Origin: a virus
Lineage: Duplodnaviria; Heunggongvirae; Uroviricota; Caudoviricetes
DNA: 64,000 nt
IMG/VR virus record: IMGVR_UViG_3300011008_000003
Direction: 5' to 3' (one strand)
Part shown: piece by piece, positions 3,150 to 58,632 of the stretch
Numbering within the stretch: position 1 is the first letter of the stretch
How the letters are laid out: each line of letters starts with the position of its first letter
The notes under the pieces: model-generated
Database searches by the model: none
What the model was told of the DNA's origin: nothing
The model's input: only the letters and a program-made list of their open reading frames with translations
Made by a program: the position numbers and the translations under genes

Positions 3150-3881
3150 TTAGAAATCAGAAAGACTGTCTCTGTCGTAGAAGTCTTCATCCGGGTTCTT
3201 TTCCGGGAATTCTTCAAGTTCAGAACCGTATTCAATATCGTCGTCATCTTCGAATTCGTTATCACCGAGCGTATCGGCAATGAGATCGTCTAATCCTTCA
3301 TCGGTAGGACCTTCAGTCGGGGTTCCAAGAAGAACATCCTGGTCAACATCCGGATAAACCTTCTGAAGAAGGTCAAGTCCGTCAGGCATGATGAACCACT
3401 TATTACGAGAGTTATCATACTTGATGAAATAGTTATCGGTCATTGCAGCAAACATGCTCTGGTCAGTTCCTTCACGAATTCCAGCGATTTCCTTAAGTTC
3501 AGCCGGTTCAAGATAACCACCGTTATCATAAAGAGCCTTAAGAACCTTAATATAGATACGGTCTGCAGACGGTTTCGAGAAGTTATAGCTATACTTGCTT
3601 TCGACAATATAGCCATTTTTCTTAAGAAGATTCAATGCGTTTTTAACTTCTGCAGATTCTGCAGTAACTGGACGATTTGCACGACGTCCAATGCTGAAAA
3701 TATCTTCGATAGCTTCGACCGCATTGTTATAATCGCATGACTTCTTATCAACTGCCTGTAAAACCTTGAGAACAAGATTCTTAATCAAAGACAGATTACC
3801 GCTCGGAACATTAGACTTAGAAGCTTTACGAATATAATTGTAAACGTCTTCAAGTCCATTAATATTAACTTCGTTAATCAT
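3150..3881 (-). CDS. Late protein with internal NALNLLKKNGYIVE tag, probable winged-helix domain and acidic tail
   Basis: TATAAATA at 3901-3908 and AGGAG SD; wHTH-like segment IKVLKALYDNGG..AELKEIAG..KWFIMPDG. Confidence 0.6.
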   Translation of the reverse strand: MINEVNINGLEDVYNYIRKASKSNVPSGNLSLIKNLVLKVLQAVDKKSCDYNNAVEAIEDIFSIGRRANRPVTAESAEVKNALNLLKKNGYIVESKYSYNFSKPSADRIYIKVLKALYDNGGYLEPAELKEIAGIREGTDQSMFAAMTDNYFIKYDNSRNKWFIMPDGLDLLQKVYPDVDQDVLLGTPTEGPTDEGLDDLIADTLGDNEFEDDDDIEYGSELEEFPEKNPDEDFYDRDSLSDF

Positions 3882-3900
3882 AATTTCTCCTGTTTTATAT

Positions 3901-3908
3901 TATTTATA
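3901..3908 (-). promoter_or_regulatory. T4-type late promoter TATAAATA
   Basis: Exact octamer upstream of SD+ATG. Other copies: 21393, 21935, 26991, 28158, 44911, 45998, 58659, 60741, 62434, 63838 (minus); 22016, 28162, 62474 (plus). Confidence 0.75.
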
Positions 3909-3909
3909 G

Positions 3910-5058
3910 TTATTCTGAATCTCTTTTAACGAAAAGCGTAAATCCAATAAAACCAATAAAATAAAGCAGGGCGAGAATAAGATATAACGTATTGGTGGTA
4001 AAGATGTTCGCAAGAACCGGACCTGCGATACCAGCCATACCCCAACCGCTAAGTGTCATTGCATGGACGGTAGAAACACAGGAATTTCCAAATCTCTTGG
4101 CGAGCAAGGACGGAAGACAGCTGAAGTTTCCACCATAAGAGAATTCACAGAATAAGATACCGATAAGCAAAAGAATCGGCTGTTGAGTATAGCAAAGGAA
4201 CGCTCCTAGAATACCCAGACTACAAACCCAGTGATATGCCGCCTTTCTTCCGATTTTATCCGATGCCGTACTCATTCCGAACCTGCCGCCGACGTTGGCA
4301 ATAGCCGTTAACGACATGAGCATTGCAATAGCCGTAAATCCGGATCCGAGTAGCAATCCCTTTTCCTGTGAAATCAAAGCGAGACCGCATGTAATGTTGA
4401 TAAAGAACATGAACCAGATAGAAATATATTCTTTCGTCAGGAATTTCGCTTTCCACAGGTTCTTATAAGGAACAGCGGTATAGATAGTCGAAATGTATGC
4501 AGGATTCGGCTTGTATAACCAGGAAGAAAGACTCATGACTCCAAGGAATATCGAACCCATCAAAAGGAAAACGACCGGTAACGAGAAACTGGTCAGGAAA
4601 TATTCAATCATAGGCGAGGCGACAAATTTACCGAGTCCGAATCCTGTAATTGCTAAACCGCTTGCGAGGCCTTTATGGTCGCTGAAGTTAGCCATAAGCT
4701 GCTTAATCGGCGACGTATAGCCTATTCCAGTTCCGCATCCCATGAAGGCACATGCGACATAATAAAGCGGAAGAAATCTGGAATAAACGGATAACGAAAG
4801 CATGAGCATGCCGACAGCGAACAGTACGGTTGATACGATAGCCATTCGTTTTGGATTCATCTCGACGAAACGGCCGAAAGCCGCAGCTCCCATGCCGAGG
4901 AAGAAGATAATGAGGGTAAACCCGATGTCAGCCTGGAATTTGCTAATATCGAAAGCCTCCATTATGTTCTTTGCATATTGTGAATAGTTATAGACGCTGC
5001 CTAATGAAATAGGCAGAATCAAACCTGGAATTAAAATATTTAAGTATCTGTTTTTCAT
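3910..5058 (-). CDS. MFS transporter, oxalate:formate antiporter (OFA/YhjX-like) family
   Basis: About 12 hydrophobic segments; G.GTGIGY.SP, DHKGLASGLAITGFGLG, ASDKIGRK, YGGNFS.LP, SGWGMAGIAGP. Confidence 0.85.
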   Translation of the reverse strand: MKNRYLNILIPGLILPISLGSVYNYSQYAKNIMEAFDISKFQADIGFTLIIFFLGMGAAAFGRFVEMNPKRMAIVSTVLFAVGMLMLSLSVYSRFLPLYYVACAFMGCGTGIGYTSPIKQLMANFSDHKGLASGLAITGFGLGKFVASPMIEYFLTSFSLPVVFLLMGSIFLGVMSLSSWLYKPNPAYISTIYTAVPYKNLWKAKFLTKEYISIWFMFFINITCGLALISQEKGLLLGSGFTAIAMLMSLTAIANVGGRFGMSTASDKIGRKAAYHWVCSLGILGAFLCYTQQPILLLIGILFCEFSYGGNFSCLPSLLAKRFGNSCVSTVHAMTLSGWGMAGIAGPVLANIFTTNTLYLILALLYFIGFIGFTLFVKRDSE

Positions 5059-5064
5059 AGTACA

Positions 5065-5595: not shown

Positions 5596-5668
5596 TTTTA
5601 TTCCTCTGTAACAGTTTCAAATATAGCAAAAAATTTGTTACGTATAAGAAAACTGGAAAAAATCTGTA

Positions 5669-5697: not shown

Positions 5698-5704
5698 TAT
5701 TGAT

Positions 5705-6904: not shown

Positions 6905-6907
6905 AAA

Positions 6908-7790: not shown

Positions 7791-7791
7791 T

Positions 7792-19834: not shown

Positions 19835-20369
19835 GGTAATTCTCCAGTTCGTCAGATTTGATAACTTTTGCAAAATTCTTGAACATCAATGTACTGATTT
19901 TTGTAAGTTCGCGCTCGGCCTGTTCCTTTGTAAGGACCTTCAGGTGATTAATATCGTCAATTCGATATTCGTTAAGATTATCGCCACCGAACTTGACTGT
20001 AATTTCTTTATCCGGCTTAGACTGGGTAAACGTGACAAGATTGGAAATCTTGAGATAAACGCAGTCACCGCCCATCCAGCTATTAAAACCTTCGACATAG
20101 AAAATACGGTATTGCGGCCGTTCCTTTTCGTTTTCGTATTCGTCCATGCACATCGTACCAGGAATCTTAACCCATTTATGGATATACGGGTTCATTTTTT
20201 CAGAAACACCCTTTTCATACAGTTTAGTACGAACAGCGTTAAGCTGACGTTCAACTTCATCCTTCAACGAGGTAAGTTTCTTAAACTGTGCTTGCAAATC
20301 AGTTTCTGAATGTTTTTCGTGGAATTCGTTATACTTATTCACGTCGACTTTATTGATTTTCTTTGCCAT
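19803..20369 (-). CDS. Hypothetical protein (coiled-coil + beta domain family)
   Basis: GGAG SD; similar layout to 17823 and 47900. Confidence 0.7.
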   Translation of the reverse strand: MAKKINKVDVNKYNEFHEKHSETDLQAQFKKLTSLKDEVERQLNAVRTKLYEKGVSEKMNPYIHKWVKIPGTMCMDEYENEKERPQYRIFYVEGFNSWMGGDCVYLKISNLVTFTQSKPDKEITVKFGGDNLNEYRIDDINHLKVLTKEQAERELTKISTLMFKNFAKVIKSDELENYHVKKANKNQD

Positions 20370-20742
20370 AATAATTCTCCAAAGAATGAATTTTCTTGAC
20401 TACATAGTTCGTCATTCGCCTTAACCATCTTTCCGTAAGTTCGTCGAGGTTCTTATCCTGCCAGTTCATGAAATGATAGGTCGGCATAAAATAATCAAGA
20501 TTAAAATGCGACTTTTCGATGTAATAGTAAAATCGCAGATGTGCTTCGGTTTCTTTTAACGGCATGACACATACACCGTCACTGGTATATTCTTCGCAAC
20601 CCTCGACGACGACAAGAATACCTGTTCCGTTCTTGAATATTTTACTATCGAATACATAATCATAATGGTATTCGGGATAATTCGAGTCTTTGCGGTACAG
20701 ACCGAATTCTTTCAGGATTTTATCTACTTCGGTAAGAGTCAT
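20350..20742 (-). CDS. Hypothetical protein
   Basis: EVDKILKEFGL N-terminus reminiscent of array 1. Confidence 0.65.
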   Translation of the reverse strand: MTLTEVDKILKEFGLYRKDSNYPEYHYDYVFDSKIFKNGTGILVVVEGCEEYTSDGVCVMPLKETEAHLRFYYYIEKSHFNLDYFMPTYHFMNWQDKNLDELTERWLRRMTNYVVKKIHSLENYYGKENQ

Positions 20743-20743: not shown

Positions 20744-21025
20744 TTAATCCCAGTGTACAGTTATAGAATCGAGATAGCCATAACCGTCTCGAGTATCTAC
20801 TATCTTGTAGCCTTTCTTTTCAAGTACAACAGAAATATGTGGAAGCGTAAGATTATATTTGTCCATCATATATTTGCGATAGAACGTTGTTTCAGTTCTA
20901 CCGCCCCGGTTCATCATAATCAGTTCATTCTTGATTTTCTTCCAACCAGCTTCTTGCTTCTGTTTAATTTCAGCACTTTGCCGAGCTTTTCGGAGTTCTT
21001 CTACAGATGGTATTTCGTCTTCCAT
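20744..21025 (-). CDS. Hypothetical protein
   Basis: Downstream of promoter element 21049-21083. Confidence 0.7.
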   Translation of the reverse strand: MEDEIPSVEELRKARQSAEIKQKQEAGWKKIKNELIMMNRGGRTETTFYRKYMMDKYNLTLPHISVVLEKKGYKIVDTRDGYGYLDSITVHWD

Positions 21026-21106: not shown

Positions 21107-21370
21107 TTATCGCAGCTCGTTTAAATATTTATCGAGAATCGAATAAGAAAATGCCTTAGGCGGTTCACCCATAAGAAAACCACGCTGGATTTCGTTCTTA
21201 TGGTCTTCCAAGAACTGTTCAAACTGATCGTCGAGTTCCAGGCTTACAAAACCGTCCAAAAGCTTATCATGGAAAATTCCGTACCATTCCTTATATTGCG
21301 GTTCGTCGAAAACAGATTCAACAATATATCCGTTTTTCTTTAAAAGCTGAGTGGCTTCGATTAAATTCAT
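21107..21370 (-). CDS. Late protein with N-terminal tag MNLIEATQLLKKNGYIVE (putative internal head protein)
   Basis: TATAAATA 21393-21400, AAGGAG SD. Confidence 0.7.
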   Translation of the reverse strand: MNLIEATQLLKKNGYIVESVFDEPQYKEWYGIFHDKLLDGFVSLELDDQFEQFLEDHKNEIQRGFLMGEPPKAFSYSILDKYLNELR

Positions 21371-21408
21371 TTAAAAACTCCTTACTTTTTATTATTTATA
21401 AGAAATTC

Positions 21409-21915
21409 TTAAATACGATTTACATCATCAGTAAATTCAGCCTTGAGCTTGGCCAGTATTTCAGGATTATTTAAGACATCTTCTTCGGTTTGGCCTTCCT
21501 CATCAGAAATTTCAGGGTCATCGCAGATTTCCAGAATATTATTTGCTTCATAACCGATATAGTCACCGTAAAAGCCATTTATCAATTCGTTAAAAACTTC
21601 AGCAGCATCTGTATTTCCTGCCAAATTACCTTCGCCGGCGAACTGACGACAAGCCATAGCGGCATCGTTATCTACAGCTTCGACCATGACTGCATAATTG
21701 TCAGAGAATCCATATTTTTTAACCGTGGTCAAAAGATAGTTTACGACTTCTTCCTTATCCGATGTTACAATATCGATTTGAAAAGAATCCGGTTTATCAT
21801 TTCTGGTATACATATCGCCGGTAACGGTAAAACAGACATAATTATTTCCGGTAGATTCTTTAATAAGGCGATAGCCGTTATTCTTCAGCAATTGTTTTGC
21901 TTCGTTTAAATTCAT
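21409..21915 (-). CDS. Late protein with N-terminal tag MNLNEAKQLLKNNGYRLIKE (putative internal head protein)
   Basis: TATAAATA 21935-21942, AGGAG SD. Confidence 0.7.
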   Translation of the reverse strand: MNLNEAKQLLKNNGYRLIKESTGNNYVCFTVTGDMYTRNDKPDSFQIDIVTSDKEEVVNYLLTTVKKYGFSDNYAVMVEAVDNDAAMACRQFAGEGNLAGNTDAAEVFNELINGFYGDYIGYEANNILEICDDPEISDEEGQTEEDVLNNPEILAKLKAEFTDDVNRI

Positions 21916-22048
21916 TTGAAACTCCTGTTTTTATTATTTATAAGAATCCTGATTATTAGCGGGAATCTTGATAAAAAACTTGTAAAATAAAACGGCCAAT
22001 TTGGCAAAATTGGCGTATAAATAAAGTATAAGTATAAGGAAAATTGAT

Positions 22049-22678
22049 ATGAATTTAAATGAATGGGTAATGAATGCGGCCGCCGGCCTTTTGACAGAAG
22101 ATACGCAAGTCGGAGAACAGCTCAGTAAGATTCCTAGGCCTGCCGAATATTCCTGGATGTCAGAAGAACGCTGGAACGAAATGGACGCTGAACAGCAGCA
22201 TACCTGGGTTCGTCAAGTACCGCTGGATGATCCTAACTGGAATGACCAACGCTATACGAAAGATAAAGTCCACATAGCTTTCTGCGACGCATTTGAAAAT
22301 GCACAGAAAGAGAACCCGGTTCCGTTGACTTGGTGTAGAGAAATGTATACAAAAGGATTCGATACATTTACTTTCGGATGTAAGGACCATAAGTACGCAT
22401 TCGATGTCTATGACGTACAGAAGAACGACCCGAATTACGGCCATGCGAATATCTGCGTCTATGTAAAGGATCCGAATATTAAATATCCGGCAAATAACCT
22501 GGTTAGCGCATTCTATGTCAAGAAGGACACTCTTCCGAATGAAGCCAAGTCGATTTTCAGGATAACCAACAGGCTATTTAACGACGGGTTGGAAAAGTTC
22601 AACAAGGATAACGGTTTCATGCTTAAGAACAAGAATGAATCCTATCGACCAATGTCCAAACGTTTGCTTAACGGCTAA
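22049..22678 (+). CDS. Late protein with MNLNE...LLTE N-terminus
   Basis: TATAAATA 22016-22023, AAGGA SD. Confidence 0.7.
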   Translation: MNLNEWVMNAAAGLLTEDTQVGEQLSKIPRPAEYSWMSEERWNEMDAEQQHTWVRQVPLDDPNWNDQRYTKDKVHIAFCDAFENAQKENPVPLTWCREMYTKGFDTFTFGCKDHKYAFDVYDVQKNDPNYGHANICVYVKDPNIKYPANNLVSAFYVKKDTLPNEAKSIFRITNRLFNDGLEKFNKDNGFMLKNKNESYRPMSKRLLNG

Positions 22679-25712: not shown

Positions 25713-26033
25713 TTAAGCGAAAAGATTTATAATATCATCATAGCTCAAGTCACCCTTGACGTCTTCTTCTGCTTCCGGTTCGTTTGTGTCATCAACGATT
25801 GCGACCCATCTTTGCTGGTCGTCACTTTGCGCCTTTAATGTTAAAAAACGACCATCTGCATGTGTGAATACAAGTTTTGCCGGTACAGTGACTGTGTATT
25901 TGCTGAGTGATTTCACAAGTTCCCAGCCATTACTTGTAAGTGCTTGGATAATCTCAGAAGATATTCCGGTATCTTCTTTAATAAGCTTATGGCCGGTTCT
26001 ATTCAGTAATTGTTTTGCTTCGTTTAAATTCAT
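25713..26033 (-). CDS. Late-operon protein with N-terminal tag MNLNEAKQLLNRTGHKLIKE
   Basis: First 26 nt identical to the 21915 gene; AGGAGG SD. Confidence 0.7.
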   Translation of the reverse strand: MNLNEAKQLLNRTGHKLIKEDTGISSEIIQALTSNGWELVKSLSKYTVTVPAKLVFTHADGRFLTLKAQSDDQQRWVAIVDDTNEPEAEEDVKGDLSYDDIINLFA

Positions 26034-26045: not shown

Positions 26046-26971
26046 TTAGCCCTTGCCGTATTCCTTAGCCAGTTCCTTACATTCAGCAGAAGGAACGTCA
26101 GAATCAAATACCTTGGAATTAATGTTAATTCGCGAGTCATACTGTTCAAGTTCTTCCATAATCCTGTAGAATGATGTAGAAAGCAAAGTCTGCAACTGGA
26201 ATGTTCCGCTTACCATATTATCGTCGGATTTTGCGGCGCTACGGAACTGTCTAGCCAGTTTATTGCACTTCTGGATAAGATCATTTACAAAATACTTGTC
26301 GTTTTTCAATTTTGCAGCCGCACGGGACATTTGTAAAGAAAGAAGTCCGACAAAATGGTTCGCCAGCTTATCGTCCATCCTGTTCATTTCCTGTCCGAGA
26401 AACGTTTCGCCTTTGAAAGTCCTTGCAGCCTAGTCGCCGAAACCTTCTTTAACGATATATCCGTGTTTCTCCAATAACTGTTTTGCTTCATTGATAGTCA
26501 TATTTTTATTCTTTATTTTTGTTGATTCATTTTCGTGTGCGCCGGAAATCCATTCGTCTTGATCTTCATCATAGTCACTAACAGATTTCTTCTGTTTTCG
26601 GGCATTATTACGTTTCTTTAAATATTCTTCAAATTCATCAATAGAATTATATGTAGCATAACACTTATTGCCTAAAAATACTCTTATAATAATATTTTGT
26701 TTTGTATCAACAACAATCGAAAATTGTGTTCCATAACGAGTTCTTATATAATAATGTGAAGTGCCGTCTCTGCCGTCCCAATAACCTAAAGGTTCATCTT
26801 TACTGGTCTTACCATCCGAAGTACCATCCCACCAATAAAAATCATCGCCAAGATATGTATCTTTGAGTTTTTAAGTTCATCTAGTATAGCATAGTCATTA
26901 GACGTATCTCTTGTTAAGTCATCATACTCGCAAAGCATACCTGCATGTTTAAGCATATTTTTATAATTCAT
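26046..26971 (-). pseudogene. Tagged late gene interrupted by a -1 frameshift (A5 run, 26868-26872) and an in-frame TAG (26430-26432)
   Basis: Corrected frame reads continuously ...ELK/KLKDTYLGDD...ENESTKIKNKNMTINEAKQLLEKHGYIVKEGFGD*AARTF...MNRMDD; late promoter 26991-26998. Confidence 0.65.
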
Positions 26972-27032
26972 TTGAAACTCCTATTTTTATTATTTATAAG
27001 AAAACCGGCAATCATTGATTACCGGTCTCGTA

Positions 27033-28127
27033 TTAAAGGGTTTCAATCAGTTTGAACGCAGCTTCTATCGTGTCGTCCATGTCGAAATACTTGTAATTTC
27101 CAAGTCTTCCAACAAATCTGGTCTTCTCGTTCGGGATAGCCTTATATTTTTCATATAATGTGTTGTTCTTCTCGTTATTGACCGGATAATAAGGAACGTC
27201 TCCCTTCTTCCATTCAGAACTGTATTCCTTACTGATAATAGTCTTATCAGAACCCATATTATTAAACCACTTATGTTCAATGATTCTTGTATATGGTTCC
27301 TCGTCAGAAGTATAGTTGACGACCGCATTTCCCTGATAGTTCTCCTTGTCAAGAACTTCGGTCTCGAACCTCACGGAACGGTATTCCAACGGACCGTAGC
27401 AATAGTCATAATACTCGTCGATACAGCCGGAATAGAACACATGGTCAGCCATCGATTCCCACTTTTCCTTGTCCTTCAGGAAATCAGTATTCAAAAGAAT
27501 ATCAGCGCCTTCAAACATTCTCTTAATGAGTTTTGTATAACCTTCTACAGGAATACCTTGATATGTATCATTAAAATAATTATTGTCATATGTAAATCTT
27601 AAAGGAAGTCTTTTGATGATTTCAGGCGGAAGATCCTTAGGATCTCTCTGCCACTGCTTCAACGTATAGCCCTTGATTAAGGTCTCGTACATGGTCTTTC
27701 CGACCATGTTGATAGCCTGTTCCTCGAGGTTCTTCGGATTATCCACATGATACTGTTCCGATTCTTCCCTAATCTTATTCTGCGCCTCTTCCGGGGTCAC
27801 GACACCGTAAAGCTGATGGAACGTGTTCATGTTGAACGGAAGATTGTAGATTTTACCTTTGTAATTAGCTATCGTATTCAACTGGAACGTGTTGAACTCG
27901 CCGAATTGATTTACAAAATTCCAGATTTTTTTATTGGATGTATGAAAAATGTGCGGGCCTCTGCAGTGAATATCAATATTTTCTCTTCTTTCAGTATAGC
28001 AATTACCTGCAATATGGGGGCGTTTTTCGATAACTAATACTGACTTACCTGCTTTGATAAAATGATACGCCAACGTAGCGTTAAATAAGCCAGCACCAAC
28101 CAAAAGTATATTGTAATGTTCTTTCAT
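27033..28127 (-). CDS. glf: UDP-galactopyranose mutase
   Basis: VGAGL FAD motif, IAGNCY, GPHIFHT, LPFNMNTF, YQGIP, RIIEHK, PYYP, GRLGNYKYFDMD. Confidence 0.95.
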   Translation of the reverse strand: MKEHYNILLVGAGLFNATLAYHFIKAGKSVLVIEKRPHIAGNCYTERRENIDIHCRGPHIFHTSNKKIWNFVNQFGEFNTFQLNTIANYKGKIYNLPFNMNTFHQLYGVVTPEEAQNKIREESEQYHVDNPKNLEEQAINMVGKTMYETLIKGYTLKQWQRDPKDLPPEIIKRLPLRFTYDNNYFNDTYQGIPVEGYTKLIKRMFEGADILLNTDFLKDKEKWESMADHVFYSGCIDEYYDYCYGPLEYRSVRFETEVLDKENYQGNAVVNYTSDEEPYTRIIEHKWFNNMGSDKTIISKEYSSEWKKGDVPYYPVNNEKNNTLYEKYKAIPNEKTRFVGRLGNYKYFDMDDTIEAAFKLIETL

Positions 28128-28157
28128 TTATTCACCTTTGTAATAAAAACTTTACAT

Positions 28158-28203
28158 TATTTATAAATAATATATGGTGTTAGTAACGGTAATTACTAAC
28201 ACC
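28158..28203. promoter_or_regulatory. Overlapping divergent late promoters plus hairpin
   Basis: Palindromic TTATTTATAAATAA, then GGTGTTAGTAA-CGGTAA-TTACTAACACC. Confidence 0.65.
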
Positions 28204-28227
28204 TACCAAACACAATGAGGTAGCATT

Positions 28228-29259
28228 ATGTCTGATACATTATATATAAAACCAGATAAAGAAAAAACGTATTCTGTTAATTCCGAAGAAGAATTAAATT
28301 ATTATAAATCCCTAAGACCTATTAGACTTTGGTCACGAACACATTTTAAATGTAAATGTAGTAAGTGCCATGAAGATAAAGACATTTTATTATTAAATTT
28401 GAAATTTCCATTTATTTGCTTTAAATGTAAAGCAAAAATAGTTGGCAATAAAGAATCTACAAAAGAACGCCGTAAAGCTACATGTTTAGCTAAATATGGT
28501 GTTGAAAATACATTTCAATCAGAAGAAAAGAAAGCTAAAATACATCAAACTTGTATGGAACGCTATGGCTATGAATGTGCATCACAAGTTCCAGAATTTA
28601 TAGAAAAACAAAAGAAAACTAATATAGAACGTTATGGTGTTCCTTGTACATTAAATACTAAAGAAAATCTTATTAAACGCAAAGAAACTTGGATAGAACA
28701 TTATGGTGTTGATAACCCTAATAAATCTGATATAATAAAAGCAAAAACAATAAAAACTAATTTAGAAAAATATGGTGTTACAAACCATATGAAAACTGAA
28801 GAATCTAAATTAAAATCAATGCAAACTAAACTAGAAAAATATGGAGATGCATTCTATTCTGGATTTGTAATTTATTATTATAACAATATCTTTTTTAGAT
28901 CTAAACCTGAATTATGTTTCTACATTTATAATAAGGATCAGGGAAAAGATATAATTTATGAACCACAACCATATTTTAAATATCAATGCGAAGATAAAGA
29001 ATATTATTATAAACCCGATTTCTTATTAGAAAATAAATTATATGAAATTAAAGGCGATTATTTCTTTGACGATGCTGATAATCTCATAAATCCATATGAT
29101 AGGTCATTAGACAATGTTGCTAAAGCTAAACAATTATGCATGGAAGAACATAATGTTACTGTTTTAAAAAGCAATAAATATATGTTCTATGTCGACTATG
29201 TTAAAGAAAAATATGGAACTGATTATATAGAAACTTTTAGATATAAAAAAGAGGATTAA
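28228..29259 (+). mobile_element. Putative free-standing homing endonuclease (KYGV repeats + PD-(D/E)xK nuclease)
   Basis: N-terminal CxxC pairs, about 6 T.LEKYGV.N-type repeats, C-terminal FRSK.E...Y.PDF....YEIKG; opposite strand, very AT-rich. Confidence 0.7.
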
Positions 29260-29272
29260 TATCCTCTTTTTA
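29245..29272. terminator. Bidirectional terminator
   Basis: AAAAAGAGGAT-TAAT-ATCCTCTTTTT between convergent genes. Confidence 0.7.
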
Positions 29273-29827
29273 ATTATTTGGTAAACCACTCCATATTATA
29301 CCATCATTGTTATTTGCAATAATTGTTTGACATACTGTTGTTTCATTCATATCATTTGATATATTATTAAGCATTTGTTCAATTTCATTTAAAAATGGTT
29401 CTGCAATAATCATCAATTTATTATCAATTATAGTTAAATGATTATTTATATTTTGGCCATCTTTTAAATGAGAAATTAATAATTCTTTACCTACAATATT
29501 ACGATGAATAAAATTACATCGTAATGTGGCATATAAAAATTCACCGATTGTATTTATTTGATTTGGCTCCGGTCGTATATGTAAATTTCTATTATATATT
29601 GAAATTATATTTGATTCAATATTTTGATATTTAATATTTTGCGGTTTTAAATAAACATTAATTAAATTTTTAAATTTTTCATTATCATGTCCAGTTTGAT
29701 ATAAATCTGCTGACATTGAACCTAATAATGCAGAAATTATTGTGAATGTTTGTGGAGAACCAATAATAGCAATTTTTCGACAATCATTAATTATTGATAT
29801 GTATTTATTATAATACTGGTGATTCAT
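29270..29827 (-). CDS. Helical protein with HEPN-like Rx4H motif (leaderless)
   Basis: FLYATLRCNFIH; ATG 7 nt after TATATT of element 29835-29868. Confidence 0.45.
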   Translation of the reverse strand: MNHQYYNKYISIINDCRKIAIIGSPQTFTIISALLGSMSADLYQTGHDNEKFKNLINVYLKPQNIKYQNIESNIISIYNRNLHIRPEPNQINTIGEFLYATLRCNFIHRNIVGKELLISHLKDGQNINNHLTIIDNKLMIIAEPFLNEIEQMLNNISNDMNETTVCQTIIANNNDGIIWSGLPNN

Positions 29828-29834
29828 AATATTT

Positions 29835-29868
29835 AATATAGTAAAAAGACTGACATTTGTCAGCCTTT
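29835..29868 (-). promoter_or_regulatory. Fused terminator / early promoter (variant)
   Basis: AAAGGCTGAC-AAAT-GTCAGTCTTTTTAC-TATATT; CTGACA-17-TATATT. Confidence 0.75.
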
Positions 29869-29876
29869 ATTTTAAG

Positions 29877-30725
29877 TTATATTATCATTTCACATATATC
29901 ACTACAATAAACCGGTTTTTTTGTAATTTCATTTATTATTCTTGCTTCATTATAATTAGATTCTATAAAAATTAATGCATCACTTTGCTTATAAAAATTA
30001 GCTTTATATTTTGCAGGATTTATTTTTCTACGTTCTTCATGATTTTTTGCAGGACACATAATTAATTTTTCATATTCTATATTATGTTCTTTTAACCAAT
30101 TTTCAGTAATTTTTCTATATTTTTCTAGTCGACCTGTTACTATATATTTTAACTTTTTATCTGGTACAAATTTTTGCTTAGATTGTTTTATAAAATTAAT
30201 ATATTTTTCGCCATCATCATCTATGCCTTTTGGAACATCTTCGCATAAAAATCCATCCATATCTATACAACCTCTATTTATACCACGTTTTAAAATATTC
30301 CATGGTAAAAATTGGTCTTTAAAAATTTGAAAATAAATATCAACTTTATTAACAGAATATGGTTCTACAAAAATTACACAAGTTGTAATTTTAACTTCTT
30401 TGTTATTTTCTATAATTTTTTGTTTTGCTGTATTCATTGTTTCACCTAAACCCATTGCATCATCAAACAATAAAATATGTTTTACATTTATAGGGTAATC
30501 TGGTGATAATGATGCTTTTCTTAATTTAATAGATTCAGTATTATTTAAAAAATCAAATAATGAAACTACAGGTTTTCTAAGATATTCGCCAAGAATTGTT
30601 CCAAATATATAACCACTTCTTGGAATACATACAATTAAATCTATATCTGATGGTATTTTAATTAATGAATTAAAACATAATGCATTTATATAATTTAAAT
30701 CTTTATAATTTCTAAAATCTAACAT
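29877..30725 (-). CDS. Phosphoribosyltransferase-HAD phosphatase fusion
   Basis: CIPRSG, LLFDDAMGLGET (PRPP loop); DMDG, VTGR, K, FIES. Confidence 0.75.
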   Translation of the reverse strand: MLDFRNYKDLNYINALCFNSLIKIPSDIDLIVCIPRSGYIFGTILGEYLRKPVVSLFDFLNNTESIKLRKASLSPDYPINVKHILLFDDAMGLGETMNTAKQKIIENNKEVKITTCVIFVEPYSVNKVDIYFQIFKDQFLPWNILKRGINRGCIDMDGFLCEDVPKGIDDDGEKYINFIKQSKQKFVPDKKLKYIVTGRLEKYRKITENWLKEHNIEYEKLIMCPAKNHEERRKINPAKYKANFYKQSDALIFIESNYNEARIINEITKKPVYCSDICEMII

Positions 30726-30727
30726 TA

Positions 30728-31558
30728 TTAACCTAACATTTTTTTAATTTCATCGATTGATAATTTATCCCATTCATCTGTTTTATATTCTGGAAATATT
30801 TTTTTCCATTTTTCCATTAAATGTGGAAATAATCGTAATACAATATAAAATTGTAAATTTTTCCACCATACACCATTGATATTTTTACCAGCAGCATTTA
30901 ATCCTGTACTATTCATACTATCATCACATGCATATTTATCAAGGTGTAAACAGCCCGATTCAATATCATTATATCTATACCATGGTTGTAACCAACTTTC
31001 ATCACATTTTGGGCAGTATTTTAAACGTAGTTCTAAATATTTTGGATTTAATGCTTCTAATGGAAATGTATCTGGCGGTATTACACTATTTCCGGAAATT
31101 TTCATACGAATAGAATGATCAGGTAATTTTAATTGTTTATAATGACGATATTTAAAATTTATACCTTTATCTGGAACTAAATAATTTACTAAAGACTCAA
31201 AAACAGCATATATCCTTTTTGACGTAGTTACTGTTTTCATTCGTTCTACTAATTTTATGTCATAAAAATTATCTTCATCTATTGCTACTACATAATCATG
31301 ATAATGTTTTGGATAAACATTCCAACGTTTTGTACAACCATCGTCATAATCTACCCATGAAATAATTACATTATTTGCTTTACATACTAATAACAAATCT
31401 TCAGGTAAATCTTTTTCTTTATTCGGAAAATTTACAGTTGATAACCAAAGATAAAAATAATCCGGCTTAACTGTTTGTGTTTTAAAAAATTTATATAAAA
31501 ATTTACCGACTTCTTTTATTCTTTTTGGGTATGATGTCATAGTAACTACGGTTTTCAT
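30728..31558 (-). CDS. GT-A-fold glycosyltransferase-like protein
   Basis: VTMTSYPKRI, QTVKPD..YLWLS, AIDEDNFY (DxD), CDESW. Confidence 0.7.
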   Translation of the reverse strand: MKTVVTMTSYPKRIKEVGKFLYKFFKTQTVKPDYFYLWLSTVNFPNKEKDLPEDLLLVCKANNVIISWVDYDDGCTKRWNVYPKHYHDYVVAIDEDNFYDIKLVERMKTVTTSKRIYAVFESLVNYLVPDKGINFKYRHYKQLKLPDHSIRMKISGNSVIPPDTFPLEALNPKYLELRLKYCPKCDESWLQPWYRYNDIESGCLHLDKYACDDSMNSTGLNAAGKNINGVWWKNLQFYIVLRLFPHLMEKWKKIFPEYKTDEWDKLSIDEIKKMLG

Positions 31559-32523
31559 ATTTCAAACTCCGATTTATTTGAAAATTTTATATTAAAAAAT
31601 TCATTTAAATATTTTTTAATAAAATCAAAATTGTCTTGTTTATATAAACAATCATTAATACAAACAAGTTTTTTATTCATTATTAATAACATTATATCTT
31701 TATAGTTATTATTATGCGATTCTATATAAGCAAAATCTTGCAAGTTGGATTCTGTATATGTTCCCAAATTTAATCTAATATATCTATATAACCAATCACT
31801 ATTAACATTATATGATTGCCTAAATTTATCATTAGGCTTATTTAATTTAATTAAATCTGTTTTTAAATCAGTAAAAATTTTTTCCACTTCCGACTTTTTT
31901 GCAGTTATCCCAACATGTACATTTTTATAAATATTAAATTTTTTTGTATACTTTTCGGCTAATTTTAAATCATTATATACAATATTCTGGAAAAAATCTA
32001 ATCGTTGTCGTCCATTTAAAAATTTTATTCCTAATTTATTTAAAAACGCTTCATGTGTTGGATTAGAATTTATTTGGTTAGATTTTATACTAGTATCGAC
32101 CGGTTTATCATTTATAAAAAAATCAGACATTTCTGTTTTATTAGTAATAAACATATCATCGTTTAAATAAATAAAATTTTCTGTTAAATCTTCTAATTTA
32201 TAACAATATGCAAAAAATATATTTGAATTAAATGTTGGTAAATAATTTTCATCAATAAATTCATTATGATAATGAATTTTTATTTTTGGATGATTTATAT
32301 TTAACCAATTAGGTATTTGTGATTTATTATCTAATAATAAATGTATTTTTCTAACCCATTTAGCATTTTCTGCAATACAACGCCACCAATATTTAAATAA
32401 ACCAAAATCTCTAATACGTTCTGGATTTTTATCACCTTTATATAATGAACATGCGGTTTTATATTTTTCAAACCATACATTATCTTCGGGATTTACCCAT
32501 GGTATAACTATATCTATTTCCAT
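31555..32523 (-). CDS. Stealth-family hexose-1-phosphate transferase
   Basis: CR1 IDIVIPWVN; CR2 R..AKWVRKIH..PNWLN..LPTFNS..FIYLNDDMF; CR4 CIND..KSEFE. Confidence 0.85.
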   Translation of the reverse strand: MEIDIVIPWVNPEDNVWFEKYKTACSLYKGDKNPERIRDFGLFKYWWRCIAENAKWVRKIHLLLDNKSQIPNWLNINHPKIKIHYHNEFIDENYLPTFNSNIFFAYCYKLEDLTENFIYLNDDMFITNKTEMSDFFINDKPVDTSIKSNQINSNPTHEAFLNKLGIKFLNGRQRLDFFQNIVYNDLKLAEKYTKKFNIYKNVHVGITAKKSEVEKIFTDLKTDLIKLNKPNDKFRQSYNVNSDWLYRYIRLNLGTYTESNLQDFAYIESHNNNYKDIMLLIMNKKLVCINDCLYKQDNFDFIKKYLNEFFNIKFSNKSEFEI

Positions 32524-32525
32524 AT

Positions 32526-33176
32526 TTACTTACAAAATTTTAATTTTTGAAATTTATATTTTTTATTATGTATTTTAAGCCAAGCTTCAAATAAAAATTC
32601 GGTAAAATAACCTAATATTCTTTTTGGTAATTTACGATTATAATATTTTTCAGCTTCCATATAATTTGTAGTTAAGTCAAATATAAATTCACAATATTCA
32701 TCAATTAATTCTTTTTTACAAATAAACATATTACACATTGCATGATGATCACTATTTAATATTTTCCAGCATTCATTATAATAATTTTCATTAACATATG
32801 CTTTTGCAAATATTAAAAATTTTTTTATATCTGCAAGTTTATTATTTTTAATAAACCAATTTATAACAGGAAAACGTTTACTATATCCAGGAGATTTAAT
32901 ACATAATATATCATATACTTCTAATTCTTTTTTTATTTCATTTTCTGATAATAATCTACCACGATTATTTACAAAATATCTTCTATAATGCTCCAATCCA
33001 ACGATTTCATCGTCAACATGCTTCCATAAGTAATATAAGCCAGTCAATTCACAATACCAAGGATTAAGAAAATCAATATTATCCCCTTCATGTGGCTGAT
33101 CTATAAGGAATTTTTCACGGATATCATCCAAAGGTAAAAATTTATTTTTACTACTTCCAACTACGTATATTTTCAT
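32526..33176 (-). CDS. DUF4422 (GT111-like galactofuranosyltransferase)
   Basis: GDNI..LNPWYCELTGLYYLWK, VGLEHYRRYF, NMFI, RILGYFTE; start corrected to MKIYVVG. Confidence 0.85.
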   Translation of the reverse strand: MKIYVVGSSKNKFLPLDDIREKFLIDQPHEGDNIDFLNPWYCELTGLYYLWKHVDDEIVGLEHYRRYFVNNRGRLLSENEIKKELEVYDILCIKSPGYSKRFPVINWFIKNNKLADIKKFLIFAKAYVNENYYNECWKILNSDHHAMCNMFICKKELIDEYCEFIFDLTTNYMEAEKYYNRKLPKRILGYFTEFLFEAWLKIHNKKYKFQKLKFCK

Positions 33177-33260
33177 TTCACCATCTTCACTAAAATTATT
33201 ATTTTTTATATTTATAATATAGAAAAATCCTTGATTGTTGGTCAAGAATTTATATAATTT

Positions 33261-34100
33261 TTATACATAATTCATTATATCAGTACAGAACACAGGTCGT
33301 TTGGAAATATTTTTAATTATTTGCGCCTCATAAAAATTAGACTCTATAAAACATGTACAATCCGTCTGCATATAGATATACGCCTTGTGCGTGGCAGGAT
33401 TCATCTGCAACCTTTCTGCGTTATTCTTGGCGGGACACATAAACAAATGACTATAAGAAATATTATGCAATTTTAACCAATGTTCAGTCTGCAGACGATA
33501 TTTTTCCAGCCGGCCAGTAACCAGGGCGAATATAGGCGACTGCGGAACATATATCGGTCGTTGATTCATGATAAAGTCGATATATTTGGGACCGTCATCG
33601 TCTATTTCGGCGGGGACTTCTTCCGTAAAAATTCCGTCTATATCGAAACACGAATTATTATGACTCATCTTAAGGATAGAATAAGGAAACAACGGCCATA
33701 CATTTTCCATCAAGAAAATATCTACAATTTTCATGCCGGCACCTTCTGCGAACGGAGCAAATGTCGTAATGAATGCCCTCTCGGTCTTTTGCCTGATTTT
33801 TTCTTTCGCATTTATCAAAGTCTTGCCACTCGAACAAGTATCGTCTACCAGCAAAATATGGTTATAATTTATCGTATGGTTAAATTGCTTGGCCAATGAC
33901 AAATCTGTACCGGGTTCTGTATCGATGTCATTCAAATATTCAAATATAGTACATAGAGGTATATTTCTATATTCTGATATTATCGTACCAATTATCATAC
34001 CGCTTCTGGGTATACAGACAATAAGGTCTATATCTTGTGGAAGCCTATATAAATTTTTAAAAATTAAGTTATTTAAATTATTATAATCACAATATGCCAT
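33261..34100 (-). CDS. Phosphoribosyltransferase-HAD phosphatase fusion (paralog of 29877)
   Basis: DIDLIVCIPRSG, LLVDDTCSSGKT, DIDG, IDDDGPKY, VTGRLEKYR, MCPAKN, FIESN. Confidence 0.75.
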   Translation of the reverse strand: MAYCDYNNLNNLIFKNLYRLPQDIDLIVCIPRSGMIIGTIISEYRNIPLCTIFEYLNDIDTEPGTDLSLAKQFNHTINYNHILLVDDTCSSGKTLINAKEKIRQKTERAFITTFAPFAEGAGMKIVDIFLMENVWPLFPYSILKMSHNNSCFDIDGIFTEEVPAEIDDDGPKYIDFIMNQRPIYVPQSPIFALVTGRLEKYRLQTEHWLKLHNISYSHLFMCPAKNNAERLQMNPATHKAYIYMQTDCTCFIESNFYEAQIIKNISKRPVFCTDIMNYV

Positions 34101-44424: not shown

Positions 44425-44892
44425 TTATCGAGCTACAATAAACGTGGCCATTTCTGGATGTTTGCTGTCATACTTATCAGTTTCGAGCTTCACGTTACCT
44501 TCGGCAAGAACCATATACAGGTAATATGCACTTCCGCCGAAAGCTTCCTTCAGGTCGAGCCTGAATTCCTTGGCACCGACCTTATTTAGGAGTTCGAAGA
44601 ATTTCGGTCCTAGGTACTCAGTATTCCTGTCAACGAATTCAGTCATATCGACCGGCTTTCCAGCCTTGATATTTTCATAGTCATTGGAAACGAGGTCTAT
44701 CAATTCCCAACCGTAAGTGTCAGTCATTTCGTCCCACAAATCATCGCCTTCCGGTGTATTTCTAAGTTCCTGCCACCTGTCATACTGAGCCTTAACGGTA
44801 TCGACGAGGTTTTCATCGGTTTCGTTAAGCTTCTTGATAGAATATCCGGCATTTTCAAGTAAATTCAATGCATTTCTAACTTTTGGTTCCAT
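44425..44892 (-). CDS. Late protein with N-terminal tag VRNALNLLENAGYSIKKLNE
   Basis: TATAAATA 44911-44918, AAGGA SD. Confidence 0.7.
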   Translation of the reverse strand: MEPKVRNALNLLENAGYSIKKLNETDENLVDTVKAQYDRWQELRNTPEGDDLWDEMTDTYGWELIDLVSNDYENIKAGKPVDMTEFVDRNTEYLGPKFFELLNKVGAKEFRLDLKEAFGGSAYYLYMVLAEGNVKLETDKYDSKHPEMATFIVAR

Positions 44893-45097
44893 AGCAAATT
44901 CCTTTTTTATTATTTATAGTTCCGCATTGTCAATAATCCACTGCTTATTGAAATCGTCGGCTATATTATCAATCCAGTATTTCAGGGCGTTTGCAAATTC
45001 CTGGGATTCATGATCAGGATTTACGGAATCTGCATACGCTACCATGGCCGACACCGAATCGAGTGCGTGCTTATGTTGCTTTTCCCAAGGGCTCATT

Positions 45098-45973
45098 TTA
45101 TCTGTTCTTTATGAAATCGAGAACGTCCTTTTTGACTGTCTCGTAGTATTCTTCCCAAATCTGGATAACGAGCTTGATATTATCGCTAGATACGTTGTCC
45201 ATCTTCAGTTTCTTATTGTATTTCGGGCAGGCGCTAAATACATACTGGTCGCCGAGAATAGCCTTTGCCTCGTAAATCGGAGACTTGCTGGCTCTTGCTG
45301 CCCAGTCGGAAATGATGTATTCTGCCCATCCCAATAAAGTCTTGTTTCCTTTTTCAGTATTCGGCGTATCGAGTCCGGTTCCGAAATCGAGAATCTTAAT
45401 ATCCCTATGACCCTGCTTGAACTGGCCCGCGAGGAGAACATCGGTACAACTGTTAGCCCACATGCCGCCGTCACAATAGGAATGACCTTCCTTGTCGACG
45501 ATTACATCGAAATACGTCGGGGCGGAACAGCTCGTAAGTATTGCGAACCACTTATCGACATCCTTATCTCCAAGGTCCCAAACCTTTTCTACAGAATCGC
45601 CGTTCATAAACGTTACAGGAATGAAAATCGGCTTTTTCCAGTCTGAAATCGTACCGTTGAACTTCGACTTAAGAATAGACTTCAAATTCGAGTTGTCATA
45701 GGTCGGGCAAGTCGGCTTGAGCCTCTTGTACCAGGAATACTTCGTGAAAATCTTCTTAAGGTTGCTATTGTAAAGTTCGAACAAGTCATGTGCGGAATAT
45801 CCTTCAGCCATACCGCCAGCGATAATAGAACCAGTGCTAGTACCAGCGAAAGCCGAAGTCAAATCACAAAGTTTCTTTCCGAGATCCTGTTCAAGTCGGC
45901 ACATAAATGCGAGCGGTCCAATTCCGAGACATCCACCACCGGTTACACTAATACAAAGCTGTTTCTTTCCCAT
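45098..45973 (-). CDS. Patatin-like phospholipase (late)
   Basis: GGGCLG, GTSTG nucleophile, SCSAPTYF, DGG; TATAAATA 45998-46005. Confidence 0.9.
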   Translation of the reverse strand: MGKKQLCISVTGGGCLGIGPLAFMCRLEQDLGKKLCDLTSAFAGTSTGSIIAGGMAEGYSAHDLFELYNSNLKKIFTKYSWYKRLKPTCPTYDNSNLKSILKSKFNGTISDWKKPIFIPVTFMNGDSVEKVWDLGDKDVDKWFAILTSCSAPTYFDVIVDKEGHSYCDGGMWANSCTDVLLAGQFKQGHRDIKILDFGTGLDTPNTEKGNKTLLGWAEYIISDWAARASKSPIYEAKAILGDQYVFSACPKYNKKLKMDNVSSDNIKLVIQIWEEYYETVKKDVLDFIKNR

Positions 45974-54483: not shown

Positions 54484-54489
54484 ATTCAC

Positions 54490-56082: not shown

Positions 56083-56387
56083 AGCTCCTCTATTGCAAAT
56101 GCTTCTTCTAAAGCGTCTGCCAACATTTTTCGTTCTTCGTCTTTACTGACATTAAAAGTTAAACCGTTATAGTCTACATAATGATTCTGCATCCAACCAT
56201 GAATATTGCTTGTTCCCCAAAGGTCAATCAATTCCGGTAAATCATATTTGTTTTCTTCTGGCAACCATCGTTCGACCGATAATACTGGATGAGCCATGAA
56301 ACTATCCTTCGGAGTGAAGTCAAATCTACCGTTATGGTAAAATCCCCGAACTTTATACTTTTCATCGCTAACCTTTATCTCAATCAT
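56079..56387 (-). CDS. Paralog array 2 family member (leaderless)
   Basis: VDYNGLTFNV; ends ALEEAFAIEEL. Confidence 0.7.
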   Translation of the reverse strand: MIEIKVSDEKYKVRGFYHNGRFDFTPKDSFMAHPVLSVERWLPEENKYDLPELIDLWGTSNIHGWMQNHYVDYNGLTFNVSKDEERKMLADALEEAFAIEEL

Positions 56388-56417
56388 ACGTAAAATATAG
56401 TTAATATTCTACGGAGG

Positions 56418-56738
56418 TTAACCCTCTAAATTTTCTATCGACAATTCTGTCTTTAATGCGTCATACAGCATGGCTCGTTCCGGAGGCAAATCCATATCAT
56501 AAATTCTGCCTGCATATTCAATCGACTGCAAATCACTGTTAATAAGCTGTAACTCTTCCATACCGTAATAAGTAGTCGTTACCTGAACACCGTTTACCGT
56601 AATTACGCCGTCGACTCGCTTTGCGATAATTTCAGGAATCCATACGAAGTCATCTTTTTCTGACATGGACTCATATTGGTGCAAAAAATCCAGGACTTCA
56701 TATGTTCTTCCAGTCTTTAAAAACTTGATTACTGCCAT
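56418..56738 (-). CDS. Paralog array 2 family member
   Basis: IEYAGRIYDM; ends ALKTELSIENLEG. Confidence 0.75.
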   Translation of the reverse strand: MAVIKFLKTGRTYEVLDFLHQYESMSEKDDFVWIPEIIAKRVDGVITVNGVQVTTTYYGMEELQLINSDLQSIEYAGRIYDMDLPPERAMLYDALKTELSIENLEG

Positions 56739-56740
56739 TT

Positions 56741-57145
56741 TTACTCCAACTGGTTAATTGCCGTTACAGTATTAAAGTTATGCTCAATTATCGACATGAT
56801 ATGCCTGACATACTTATAGAAATCAGACATTTTCGGACAACGCATATCAAATTCAGGTTCCTTAATTTCAAATCTCTCATCGCCAAAGATAAGTGTATCG
56901 TTTATGAAAATATCCATACACTCATTTACTTCCTCAGCGGTACCGGTATCTTCAGAAACCATGATACACGTATACCAGATTTCGAATAACGGAACACGGT
57001 CAATAAGGCACGGATTATAACACCAATCCGAAATATCCTCATTATCTTCGCAATCGTCGACTACGCACTTGAACTTGATATTGTACGAATTGTCGATATA
57101 TTCGTACTTATTGTCTTCGCCACGTATAACCTTAATATTCCTCAT
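56741..57145 (-). CDS. Hypothetical protein (leaderless), family-type C-terminus
   Basis: Ends FNTVTAINQLE. Confidence 0.65.
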   Translation of the reverse strand: MRNIKVIRGEDNKYEYIDNSYNIKFKCVVDDCEDNEDISDWCYNPCLIDRVPLFEIWYTCIMVSEDTGTAEEVNECMDIFINDTLIFGDERFEIKEPEFDMRCPKMSDFYKYVRHIMSIIEHNFNTVTAINQLE

Positions 57146-57151
57146 ATTAAT

Positions 57152-57192
57152 AATATAGGAAAAAGACTGACTTTTGTCAAGCCAGTCTTTTC
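57152..57192 (-). promoter_or_regulatory. Fused terminator / early promoter (variant stem)
   Basis: AAAAGACTGGCTT-GACA-AAAGTCAGTCTTTTTCC-TATATT; TTGACA-17-TATATT. Confidence 0.8.
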
Positions 57193-57213
57193 AACAAATA
57201 GGTAAATTATTTT

Positions 57214-58632
57214 TTACAGAGCGCCGAGCTTCTTAAGTTCAGCAATCGTAGATTCCATAAGAGAGTCCTTGACAGGAGCAGATTTCTTAATGGTTTCAGG
57301 TTTCTTAATTGCAGATTCCTTAACAATCTTGTAACCAGCTTTTCTAGCGACACGAACTGCTTCGTTGAAATCGTCAGAATCACTAAGAGTAATATCTTCC
57401 TTGTTCTTCCAGTAATTTGCAGTTTCCTGGTCAAGCTGGTCAACAAGGAATGTCGTAACTTCGTCGAAAATCTTCTTCAAAGTACCGAGAGTATAACCGC
57501 GAGGGAATACAATCTTGAACTTGTCGTAGAATTCCTGGAGAGTACCGTCAAATGCACCCTTCTGACCGACGTGGAACTTACGGTTAAGCTGGTTCATGCA
57601 ATACTGGTAGCACTGACGGACCTGAGCCTTGTCAACCTTACCAACCTTATTCTTGTCGACAGCACCATCTTCAGCGGCAATCGCAACAATACGACGAAGA
57701 GCTGCCGCTGGAATTGCATCGAAACCGATAGAACCTCCACCGAAACTAGAACCAGAACCGCCGTTTCCACCGCCAGAAGCAACACGACGCTTTTCTTCAG
57801 CTTCAATCTGGTCGATAACCTTCGGATTATCAAGAGCTGCCATGATACGCTTCAGTTCCTTGTTGAGAGGCGGTTCTTCACCCGGAGCAAGAAGCTTACG
57901 TCCGAGCATCTTACCAACTTCCTTAGCGACATAGAAATAGAAATTATCGAAATAATACATCGCATTATCGGATTCGAGAATATCAGCAAGACGTTCGAGA
58001 GTTTCCTTAGAAAGAGTATATTCCTTTCCAGCCTTCTTAGCACGGTGCCAGTCCCAGAATTCTTCAATAGCCTGTTCCGGAGAACCTTCCCAGTTATCCA
58101 TCAAGAACGGCTTAAGAATACGAAGAACCGTTTCATAATGACGACCGAAAGCCTGTTCCGCAGTTTCACCTTTAATTGTCGAATCTTTATCCTTTACCCA
58201 ATTAACAAGCGTTTCAAAAGCAGGTTTTGATTCAATCGCAGACACTTTTTCGCGGTTGGCTTCATGTTTTGCCCTGTAATAATCCCAGAACAAATCAATA
58301 TTATTATCCACTTCATCCTTTAAACGGTCAACCTGGTCAATAACTTGATACAGGTCAATGTCATTCTTGTTAGCGACGTTGATAATAAGATATTCAAGCT
58401 GAGCCTTCTTTTTAGAATTCTTCAAGCTCGGATCGATATTGAGCTGCTTTGCAACTGTGTCCCAGTCCAAACCGTATTCTTCAATAAACTTGCTAAGCCT
58501 ATTATATGTCGGGTCTCCGTCCTTTTTAAGAAAATCGCCAAGGATAAATAAAAGATTTTCAAGAGAATTTTTACCGTGAACACGGTCAGAGGCACGAGAC
58601 ATTTCTGTCAAAACGTAGTCTTTAAATTTCAT
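57214..58632 (-). CDS. Large late protein with T4-CTS-like N-terminus and C-terminal tag (putative internal head protein)
   Basis: TATAAATA 58659-58666; MKFKDYVLTE; FNEAVRVARKAGYKIVKES; Gly-rich linker. Confidence 0.65.
   Translation of the reverse strand: MKFKDYVLTEMSRASDRVHGKNSLENLLFILGDFLKKDGDPTYNRLSKFIEEYGLDWDTVAKQLNIDPSLKNSKKKAQLEYLIINVANKNDIDLYQVIDQVDRLKDEVDNNIDLFWDYYRAKHEANREKVSAIESKPAFETLVNWVKDKDSTIKGETAEQAFGRHYETVLRILKPFLMDNWEGSPEQAIEEFWDWHRAKKAGKEYTLSKETLERLADILESDNAMYYFDNFYFYVAKEVGKMLGRKLLAPGEEPPLNKELKRIMAALDNPKVIDQIEAEEKRRVASGGGNGGSGSSFGGGSIGFDAIPAAALRRIVAIAAEDGAVDKNKVGKVDKAQVRQCYQYCMNQLNRKFHVGQKGAFDGTLQEFYDKFKIVFPRGYTLGTLKKIFDEVTTFLVDQLDQETANYWKNKEDITLSDSDDFNEAVRVARKAGYKIVKESAIKKPETIKKSAPVKDSLMESTIAELKKLGAL

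Follow-up and report, generated by a model that had tools for sequence, protein, structure and literature searches.

A portable peptide tag on late genes of an uncultured, T4-related megaphage lineage: a candidate propeptide for the prohead

Late genes in a 64,000-nucleotide stretch of viral DNA (hereafter the window; IMG/VR record IMGVR_UViG_3300011008_000003, Caudoviricetes) encode otherwise unrelated proteins that share a tag of about 20 residues, with the consensus M-N-L-N-E-A-K-Q-L-L-x-x-x-G-Y-x(1-5)-[IL]-x-E or, more broadly, an ending of the form hydrophobic-x-Glu. Judging from its sequence and genomic context, we believe, with a probability of a little over one half (about 0.55), that this tag is a modular propeptide that directs late proteins to the prohead, ends in a site for an S77 protease and is carried on recombining late-gene cassettes. 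The phages that carry it form an uncultured, T4-related lineage with genomes of about 400 kb, and the tag would be the propeptide of their late proteins: its amphipathic helix and Gly-Tyr turn would dock the protein to the core of the prohead during assembly, the S77 prohead protease, of T4 type, would cut after the terminal Glu, as in the capsid protein, and cleavage would leave the cargo inside the head. At the level of DNA, the late promoter, ribosome-binding site and tag form a conserved block at which recombination exchanges the cargo.

A preliminary description of the window had quoted seven full copies of the motif in otherwise unrelated proteins, and we located all seven by translation and with hidden Markov models (HMMs). 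The six-frame translation was searched with a regular expression and two HMMs, a window model and a broad model, and the seven strong copies, all on the minus strand, gave E-values from 3e-11 to 0.025. Four of them start at residue 1: residues 1-20 of gene 21409-21915 (168 residues; tag at 21856-21915, ending L-I-K-E, E 3e-11), residues 1-18 of gene 21107-21370 (87 residues; 21317-21370, ending I-V-E, E 6e-10), residues 1-20 of gene 25713-26033 (106 residues; 25974-26033, ending L-I-K-E, E 1.2e-8), and a 19-residue copy at 26501 (26445-26501) that ends V-K-E and is followed by G-F-G. The copy in gene 44425-44892 (155 residues) occupies residues 3-24 (44821-44886), ends K-L-N-E and has E-values of 0.025 (broad model) and 1.5e-8 (window model). 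Internal copies had also been reported, and we find them at residues 77-94 of 243 in gene 3150-3881 (3600-3653, ending I-V-E) and, near the C-terminus, at residues 420-439 of 472 in gene 57214-58632 (57316-57375, ending I-V-K-E). In homologues of the latter gene (L004-L006, 53% identity) the tag is the very C-terminus. No further copy below E 0.5 was found in the window by HMM, so none lies in a window gene outside the late units, and for the window the earlier statement that early genes lack full copies holds. Two looser variants listed at 26971 and 22049 are not detected by the HMM, and their basis is inspection only. By eye, weaker candidate copies can be seen at the N-terminus of 20350-20742 and in an internal part of 20744-21025, both downstream of 21370.

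The tagged genes are closely linked to a promoter motif, TATAAATA, that occurs 19 times in the window against 10.1 occurrences expected. When linkage is defined as a motif no more than 80 nucleotides upstream of an open reading frame (ORF), 14 of the 124 window ORFs are linked, comprising five of the seven tagged genes and nine of the 117 others (Fisher p = 1.6e-4). The motif stands, on the minus strand, at 21935-21942 before gene 21915, at 21393-21400 before 21370, at 44911-44918 before 44892, at 3901-3908 before 3150-3881, at 58659-58666 before 57214-58632 and at 26991-26998 before 26971. Tagged genes 26033 and 26501 have no promoter of their own and are located downstream in the unit that starts at 26991-26998, which agrees with the earlier claim that every tagged gene is behind the promoter either directly (five of seven) or through an operon (two of seven). 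A conserved leader had been described as well, and we found it in the form TTCTTATAAATAATAAAAA-n-AGGAG-TTTCAA-ATG at genes 21915, 21370 and 26971; the first 26 nucleotides of 21915 are identical to those of 26033, as stated.

A word-indexed protein search with the tag region returned four close relatives only, while homologues of the 58632 gene led to a 411-kb viral contig (G001) with ten tagged genes. Homologues in this contig were found for 30 of the 124 window ORFs, at 25-89% identity, and gene order is partly kept, with 45-60 kb of the window corresponding to 67-53 kb of G001. Two complete genomes with terminal repeats, of 416 kb (G003) and 424 kb, have 23 and 21 tag matches, so that the number of tagged genes per genome ranges from 10 to 23. 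In G001, nine of nine tagged genes have TATAAATA within 90 nucleotides upstream, compared with 76 of 666 ORFs overall (11%; chance about 3e-9), and the tenth tagged gene, found later, is likewise behind the motif. Of 20 tagged genes examined in G003, 12 follow TATAAATA directly, and the majority of the remaining ones belong to tandem clusters of tagged genes. Given that in G001 the motif also precedes the capsid, scaffold, portal and tail-tube genes, we take it to be the late promoter of the lineage, and on this promoter evidence the tagged genes are predicted to be expressed late, together with the head genes. The HMM scan for co-occurrence of tag and promoter that the preliminary description had proposed finds the tag only in late units, both in the window and in the two other genomes whose promoters were examined. 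Untagged genes of the window are found behind TATAAATA too, among them a patatin-like phospholipase (45098-45973, minus strand), a protein with a SprT-like protease domain (62504-63256, plus strand) and a family-2 glycosyltransferase (61621-62388, minus strand), so tagging is selective among late genes.

Among the 50,697 deposited genomes of INPHARED, no phage relative was found for the DNA or protein of the region or for the tagged proteins. Using a profile of 23 copies against 1.84 billion proteins at a cut-off of E <= 0.001, we obtained 303 protein matches. Copies were counted in 152 proteins, made up of the 150 best of the 303 matches and two close relatives, and these hold 196 copies, of which 139 (71%) begin at residue 1, 53 are internal and four are C-terminal. 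Several internal copies (for example in P0010 and P0011) still start with Met, as if they came from gene fusion. Nearly all of the cargo is without a Pfam family: searches of the tagged window proteins and of ten larger tagged proteins against Pfam and PHROGs recognized no family except a methyltransferase in L080. A full-text literature search for the letters of the motif matched no paper.

A hydrophobic-x-E sequence is found no more than eight residues after the Gly in 173 of 193 copies of the tag (~90%), and the hydrophobic residue is Ile or Leu in 152 of these 173. A T4-type prohead protease is encoded by G001 (272734-273417; Pfam S77, E 5.6e-34; PHROG head maturation protease, E 3.5e-58), as are a gp23-type capsid protein, an adjoining scaffold and a T4-type portal, so this relative has the gp21-type (S77) protease, the gp23-type capsid protein and the scaffold together. 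In T4 the protease removes 65 residues from gp23 (PMC9958956); in the gp23 sequence, F-L-T-E has its Glu at residue 65 and precedes V-R-R by 34 residues. At exactly this distance of 34 residues from V-R-R, each of the 17 capsid proteins of the present lineage has an invariant [LI]-[TN]-E-D-F, preceded by a variable N-terminal stretch of 42-54 residues. This [LI]-[TN]-E-D-F is very probably the maturation site of these capsid proteins. The prohead proteases of T4, phiKZ, 201phi2-1 and SPN3US all cut after Glu (PMC5694885). The earlier proposal of a prohead-protease system has partial support at the level of prediction on two counts, the match between the tag ending and the predicted capsid site and the T4-type protease encoded in relatives.

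In many of 76 related loci, a gene for a head-module protein with one to three tags lies at a distance of 1-3 kb from that of the capsid protein. Proteins of this family share an invariant Glu behind the last tag, with G-F-G or D-F-G next to it. One member that is without the last tag keeps K-L-N-E / D-F-G. In a second family, present in G003, G001 and G005, the tag ends L-D-E and runs without a gap into D-F-G-I-G-V-G and some 15 more residues, which are a copy of the N-terminus of the mature capsid protein; in G004 a different N-terminal peptide precedes the same L-D-E / D-F junction. Given this direct join, the tag of the second family sits exactly at the position of the capsid propeptide. 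By inspection, the N-terminus of the late gene at 22049-22678 (plus strand; promoter motif 22016-22023), whose first 17 residues end in L-L-T-E followed by D-T-Q, resembles the site at which capsid proteins of relatives are predicted to be matured (L-L-T-E with D-F-T-Q behind it).

The protein that combines the tag with the N-terminal arm of the capsid protein (L128:2420-3007:-, in G003; 302835-303260, plus strand, in G001) consists, besides the tag, of a nearly exact copy of the ~20 residues that open the mature capsid protein, a Cys-rich piece, a run of Lys and a C-terminal part that varies. By imitating the N-arm of the capsid protein, it may insert into the capsid lattice. A search for related loci found none for this protein, the search patterns being swamped by the Lys run.

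In the AlphaFold model of the 21915 protein (mean predicted local distance difference test score, pLDDT, 82.7), residues 3-12 form a helix, residues 16-22 have pLDDT below 50 and residues 25-167 are folded cargo. In the model of a head-module protein, each of two tags forms a helix and a strand, and the Glu segment, residues 93-105, again has pLDDT below 50. Thus in both models the Glu lies in a segment predicted to be flexible between the tag helix and a confidently predicted cargo domain. Foldseek found no match at E <= 0.001 for the 21915 cargo in the PDB or for the head-module protein in BFVD. A complex prediction with the G001 capsid protein, scaffold and tag scored 0.00 in a run that had no controls, and it counts neither for nor against binding.

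Several observations weigh against a cleaved propeptide. The protease and capsid genes were read in relatives only, with G001 homologues for 30 of the 124 window ORFs, and the lineage is uncultured, with no relative among INPHARED records. Between two and six tags are present in 34 of the 152 proteins, some of which are little more than tandem units of ~22 residues, and one protein of 38 residues is simply two tag units. The four C-terminal copies, which end at Glu, at Asp or before Glu, cannot be N-terminal propeptides. Multi-copy proteins pass the cut-off of the Pfam PASTA model through positions 12-37, as would suit a repeat with a structural or binding role. The role of the Glu could be structural, within the module, and not that of a cleavage site. 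With its tandem, internal and C-terminal copies, the unit must be more than a disposable leader, a conclusion with which targeting is still compatible.

The tandem, repeated and C-terminal copies fit the main rival reading, which we regard as rather unlikely overall, namely that the tag is a small, non-cleaved docking or self-association module of helix and strand in which the Glu is structural. It would gather late proteins, for instance through pairing of its strand with the multi-tag head-module protein or with another late structure such as a tail, baseplate or membrane complex. Repeated copies, up to six per protein, the 38-residue protein of two units, the C-terminal copies ending at or before Glu, the helix and strand predicted for each head-module tag and the weak PASTA-like profile matches are all what one would expect of such a module. 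It leaves unexplained, however, why 71% of copies start at Met-1, why the tag ending is an in-register copy of the predicted cleavage site of the capsid protein, and why the Glu linker is predicted to be flexible. Since docking is compatible with targeting, it is only partly a rival to the propeptide.

In an alignment of the 21915 family, 10 of 13 invariant columns are within the tag, and identity in the cargo falls to 30-47%. In a comparison of the window with L001, where the flanks are 93-97% identical, three cargo segments have been replaced with breakpoints at tags: upstream of the 26501 tag the breakpoint is at its ATG, after the 26033 tag it is ~60 nucleotides into the gene (the end of the tag), and after the 21370 tag it is ~50 nucleotides into the gene, in the tag. 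Tags are also the joints of chimeric or fused proteins from other metagenomes (P0023, P0065 and P0120). Something similar is found in T4-type phages, whose mobile regulatory cassettes and polymorphic loci of internal proteins have hypervariable genes between conserved regulatory and 5' sequences at which recombination takes place; the present block differs in that it includes a selected peptide and in that its promoter is late, not early.

It is very improbable that this block is nothing but a cassette of promoter, ribosome-binding site and 5' coding sequence that serves recombination or late translation at the DNA or RNA level and encodes a functionless peptide. The near-identity of leader and first codons across several genes and the breakpoints at the tag are what such a cassette would produce. 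But the tag copies of the window differ at synonymous codon positions and keep their residues, indicating that the peptide itself is under selection; the peptide is also kept where homologous proteins are ~50% identical to those of the window, and internal and C-terminal copies have no leader. The preliminary description saw a plug-in cassette that turns any domain into packaged, injected cargo. Of this, the plug-in part survives, as the tag is portable, with cargo swaps at its boundaries, is restricted to late units and is selected as a peptide; an injection or anti-defence role of the cargo is unsupported, apart from the tagged methyltransferase in L080. That gene (L080:3381-4247:+), 6.6 kb upstream of a relative's capsid gene, encodes an EcoRI-like adenine-specific DNA methyltransferase (Pfam E 1e-55) with the tag at its N-terminus.

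A degenerate PASTA-type unit, binding cell-wall or muropeptide ligands in late proteins that act on the envelope, is likewise highly unlikely. The helix-Gly-strand core of the tag resembles positions ~12-37 of the PASTA model (PF03793), and among 148 profile hits there are five with a Pfam PASTA match; these include P0047, a cellular-type protein with full PASTA repeats, and the six-copy P0005, which at 36.2 bits is above the cut-off though no single stretch is significant alone. The phage proteins examined, however, match only positions ~9-37 of the 64-position model, and single-tag proteins score ~12-19 bits against a curated cut-off of 23.2. The scores of a window protein and of a head-module protein are 12.7 and 19.3 bits. 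The phage unit is ~20 residues long compared with ~65 for PASTA, is without the remaining strands of the fold and does not amount to the full ~64-position domain. A search for loci related to P0005 found none.

Least credible of all, by analogy with presequence-processing M16 enzymes, is a presequence for the phage's own M16 (insulinase-type) metallopeptidase (58719-59837), whose gene has an H-x-x-E-H zinc motif and adjoins tagged gene 58632, with the G001 homologue ~1.3 kb from the 58632-gene homologue, but nothing ties M16 specificity to a Glu at P1, and the in-register match to the maturation site of the capsid protein speaks for the S77 protease.

For a propeptide that targets the prohead, the obvious comparison is with the capsid-targeting sequence (CTS) of the T4 internal proteins IPII and IPIII, reportedly the subject of work by Mullaney and Black in 1996. 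The T4 CTS is a different peptide, of 10 residues, and the tag is not known to have any sequence similarity to it. The CTS is a short N-terminal peptide common to diverse, hypervariable late proteins. The gp21-type prohead protease cuts after the Glu at its end, the CTS by itself is enough to bring foreign proteins into the core of the prohead, and the internal-protein cargo of T4 includes an injected anti-restriction protein (PMC3012670, PMC9958956, PMC5694885). The two peptides are alike in position, length class (10-20 residues), [IL]-x-E ending, late expression and diversity of cargo. They differ in that the present tag is about twice as long, has a conserved Gly-Tyr turn and a strand-like segment, is found on 10-23 genes per genome compared with two or three, occurs also in internal, tandem and C-terminal positions, and has a putative function. 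A prohead-directed propeptide, which is the best-supported interpretation, would be a new, much expanded variant of the T4 capsid-targeting principle.

The giant phages phiKZ, 201phi2-1 and SPN3US have N-terminal propeptides on head and ejection proteins; many of their head proteins are also processed after Glu by a homologous protease and paralogues can share identical N-terminal peptides, but the motifs there read S/A/G-x-E, most of the propeptides have more than 100 residues, and there is no single portable consensus tag (PMC5694885, PMC10052503). Encapsulin cargo-loading peptides are similarly short and portable, work at either terminus and load unrelated cargo into a shell of the HK97 fold; as they are uncleaved, have another sequence and belong to a bacterial nanocompartment and not a phage head, the likeness is an analogy only.

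Experimentally, the principle of loading by peptide rests on the two or three internal proteins of T4. If the propeptide reading is correct, a second, unrelated and far more widely used tag in an uncultured megaphage lineage would make that principle general, and dozens of orphan genes per genome, including at least one DNA adenine methyltransferase, would be marked as probable virion cargo. Tag and protease together would be a testable handle on phages that have not yet been grown, and packaged, possibly injected proteins could be read from sequence. A more ambitious version, which we put forward only tentatively, is that the tag acts as a universal loading signal, by which all proteins packed in the head and delivered with the DNA (10-23 per genome, almost all without a family) could be recognized in the sequence alone. 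The tagged genes would then be a catalogue of new takeover and anti-defence effectors, the tag would be a second, orthogonal one for loading proteins into T4-type capsids, and the multi-tag head-module protein and the protein with the capsid N-arm copy would form the docking hub.

One tagged cassette of the window, at 26430-26971, is disrupted. The tag that had been reported at 26501 is present, but it does not belong to an intact tagged gene: its ORF of 23 codons is ended by an in-frame TAG at 26430-26432, and the frame resumes as the cargo ORF 26046-26387. In the relative L001 (96% identical) the TAG is TGG, so that tag and cargo are one gene there, and the alignment with P0103 continues through the stop. 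The frame upstream of 26501 (26439-26870) is open but has no start codon. Gene 26971, which has the loose N-terminal tag variant, and this frame (together 26439-26971, minus strand) are a single protein of 242 residues in the relative P0120, indicating a frameshift in the window near codons 35-45. The frameshift and the nonsense codon are either cassette decay or assembly error. Systematic amber recoding was considered as an explanation of the in-frame TAG and set aside, as ORFs are otherwise intact under table 11 and L001 has TGG.

The window as a whole is gene-dense, mostly on the minus strand, with 38-40% G+C and an island of 24-30% at 28-36 kb. Recognizable genes include a tRNA nucleotidyltransferase, RNA ligase 1, an NAD-dependent DNA ligase, UDP-galactopyranose mutase, a homing endonuclease and the M16 peptidase. 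The low-G+C island (27033-34100, 24-30%) contains TATAAATA motifs and genes for UDP-galactopyranose mutase, a Stealth-type sugar phosphotransferase, a DUF4422 protein, two phosphoribosyltransferase-like proteins and a homing endonuclease, and looks like an acquired polysaccharide-modification module that is expressed late. The M16 metallopeptidase (minus strand, 372 residues) has an intact H-L-M-E-H zinc motif, belongs to no PHROG family and is 35% identical to its homologue in G001. The product of gene 3150-3881 has a strongly acidic C-terminal tail of ~60 residues whose last residue is Phe, and similar acidic tails are found in the multi-tag proteins P0005 and P0014. In G001, a large terminase match of 319 residues beside the protease (271679-272638, minus strand) covers the C-terminal part of the profiles only, so the gene may be split. 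Finally, the window has a gene for a major-facilitator-superfamily transporter (3910-5058, minus strand) that is 82% identical to a G001 gene and is unusual for a phage genome.

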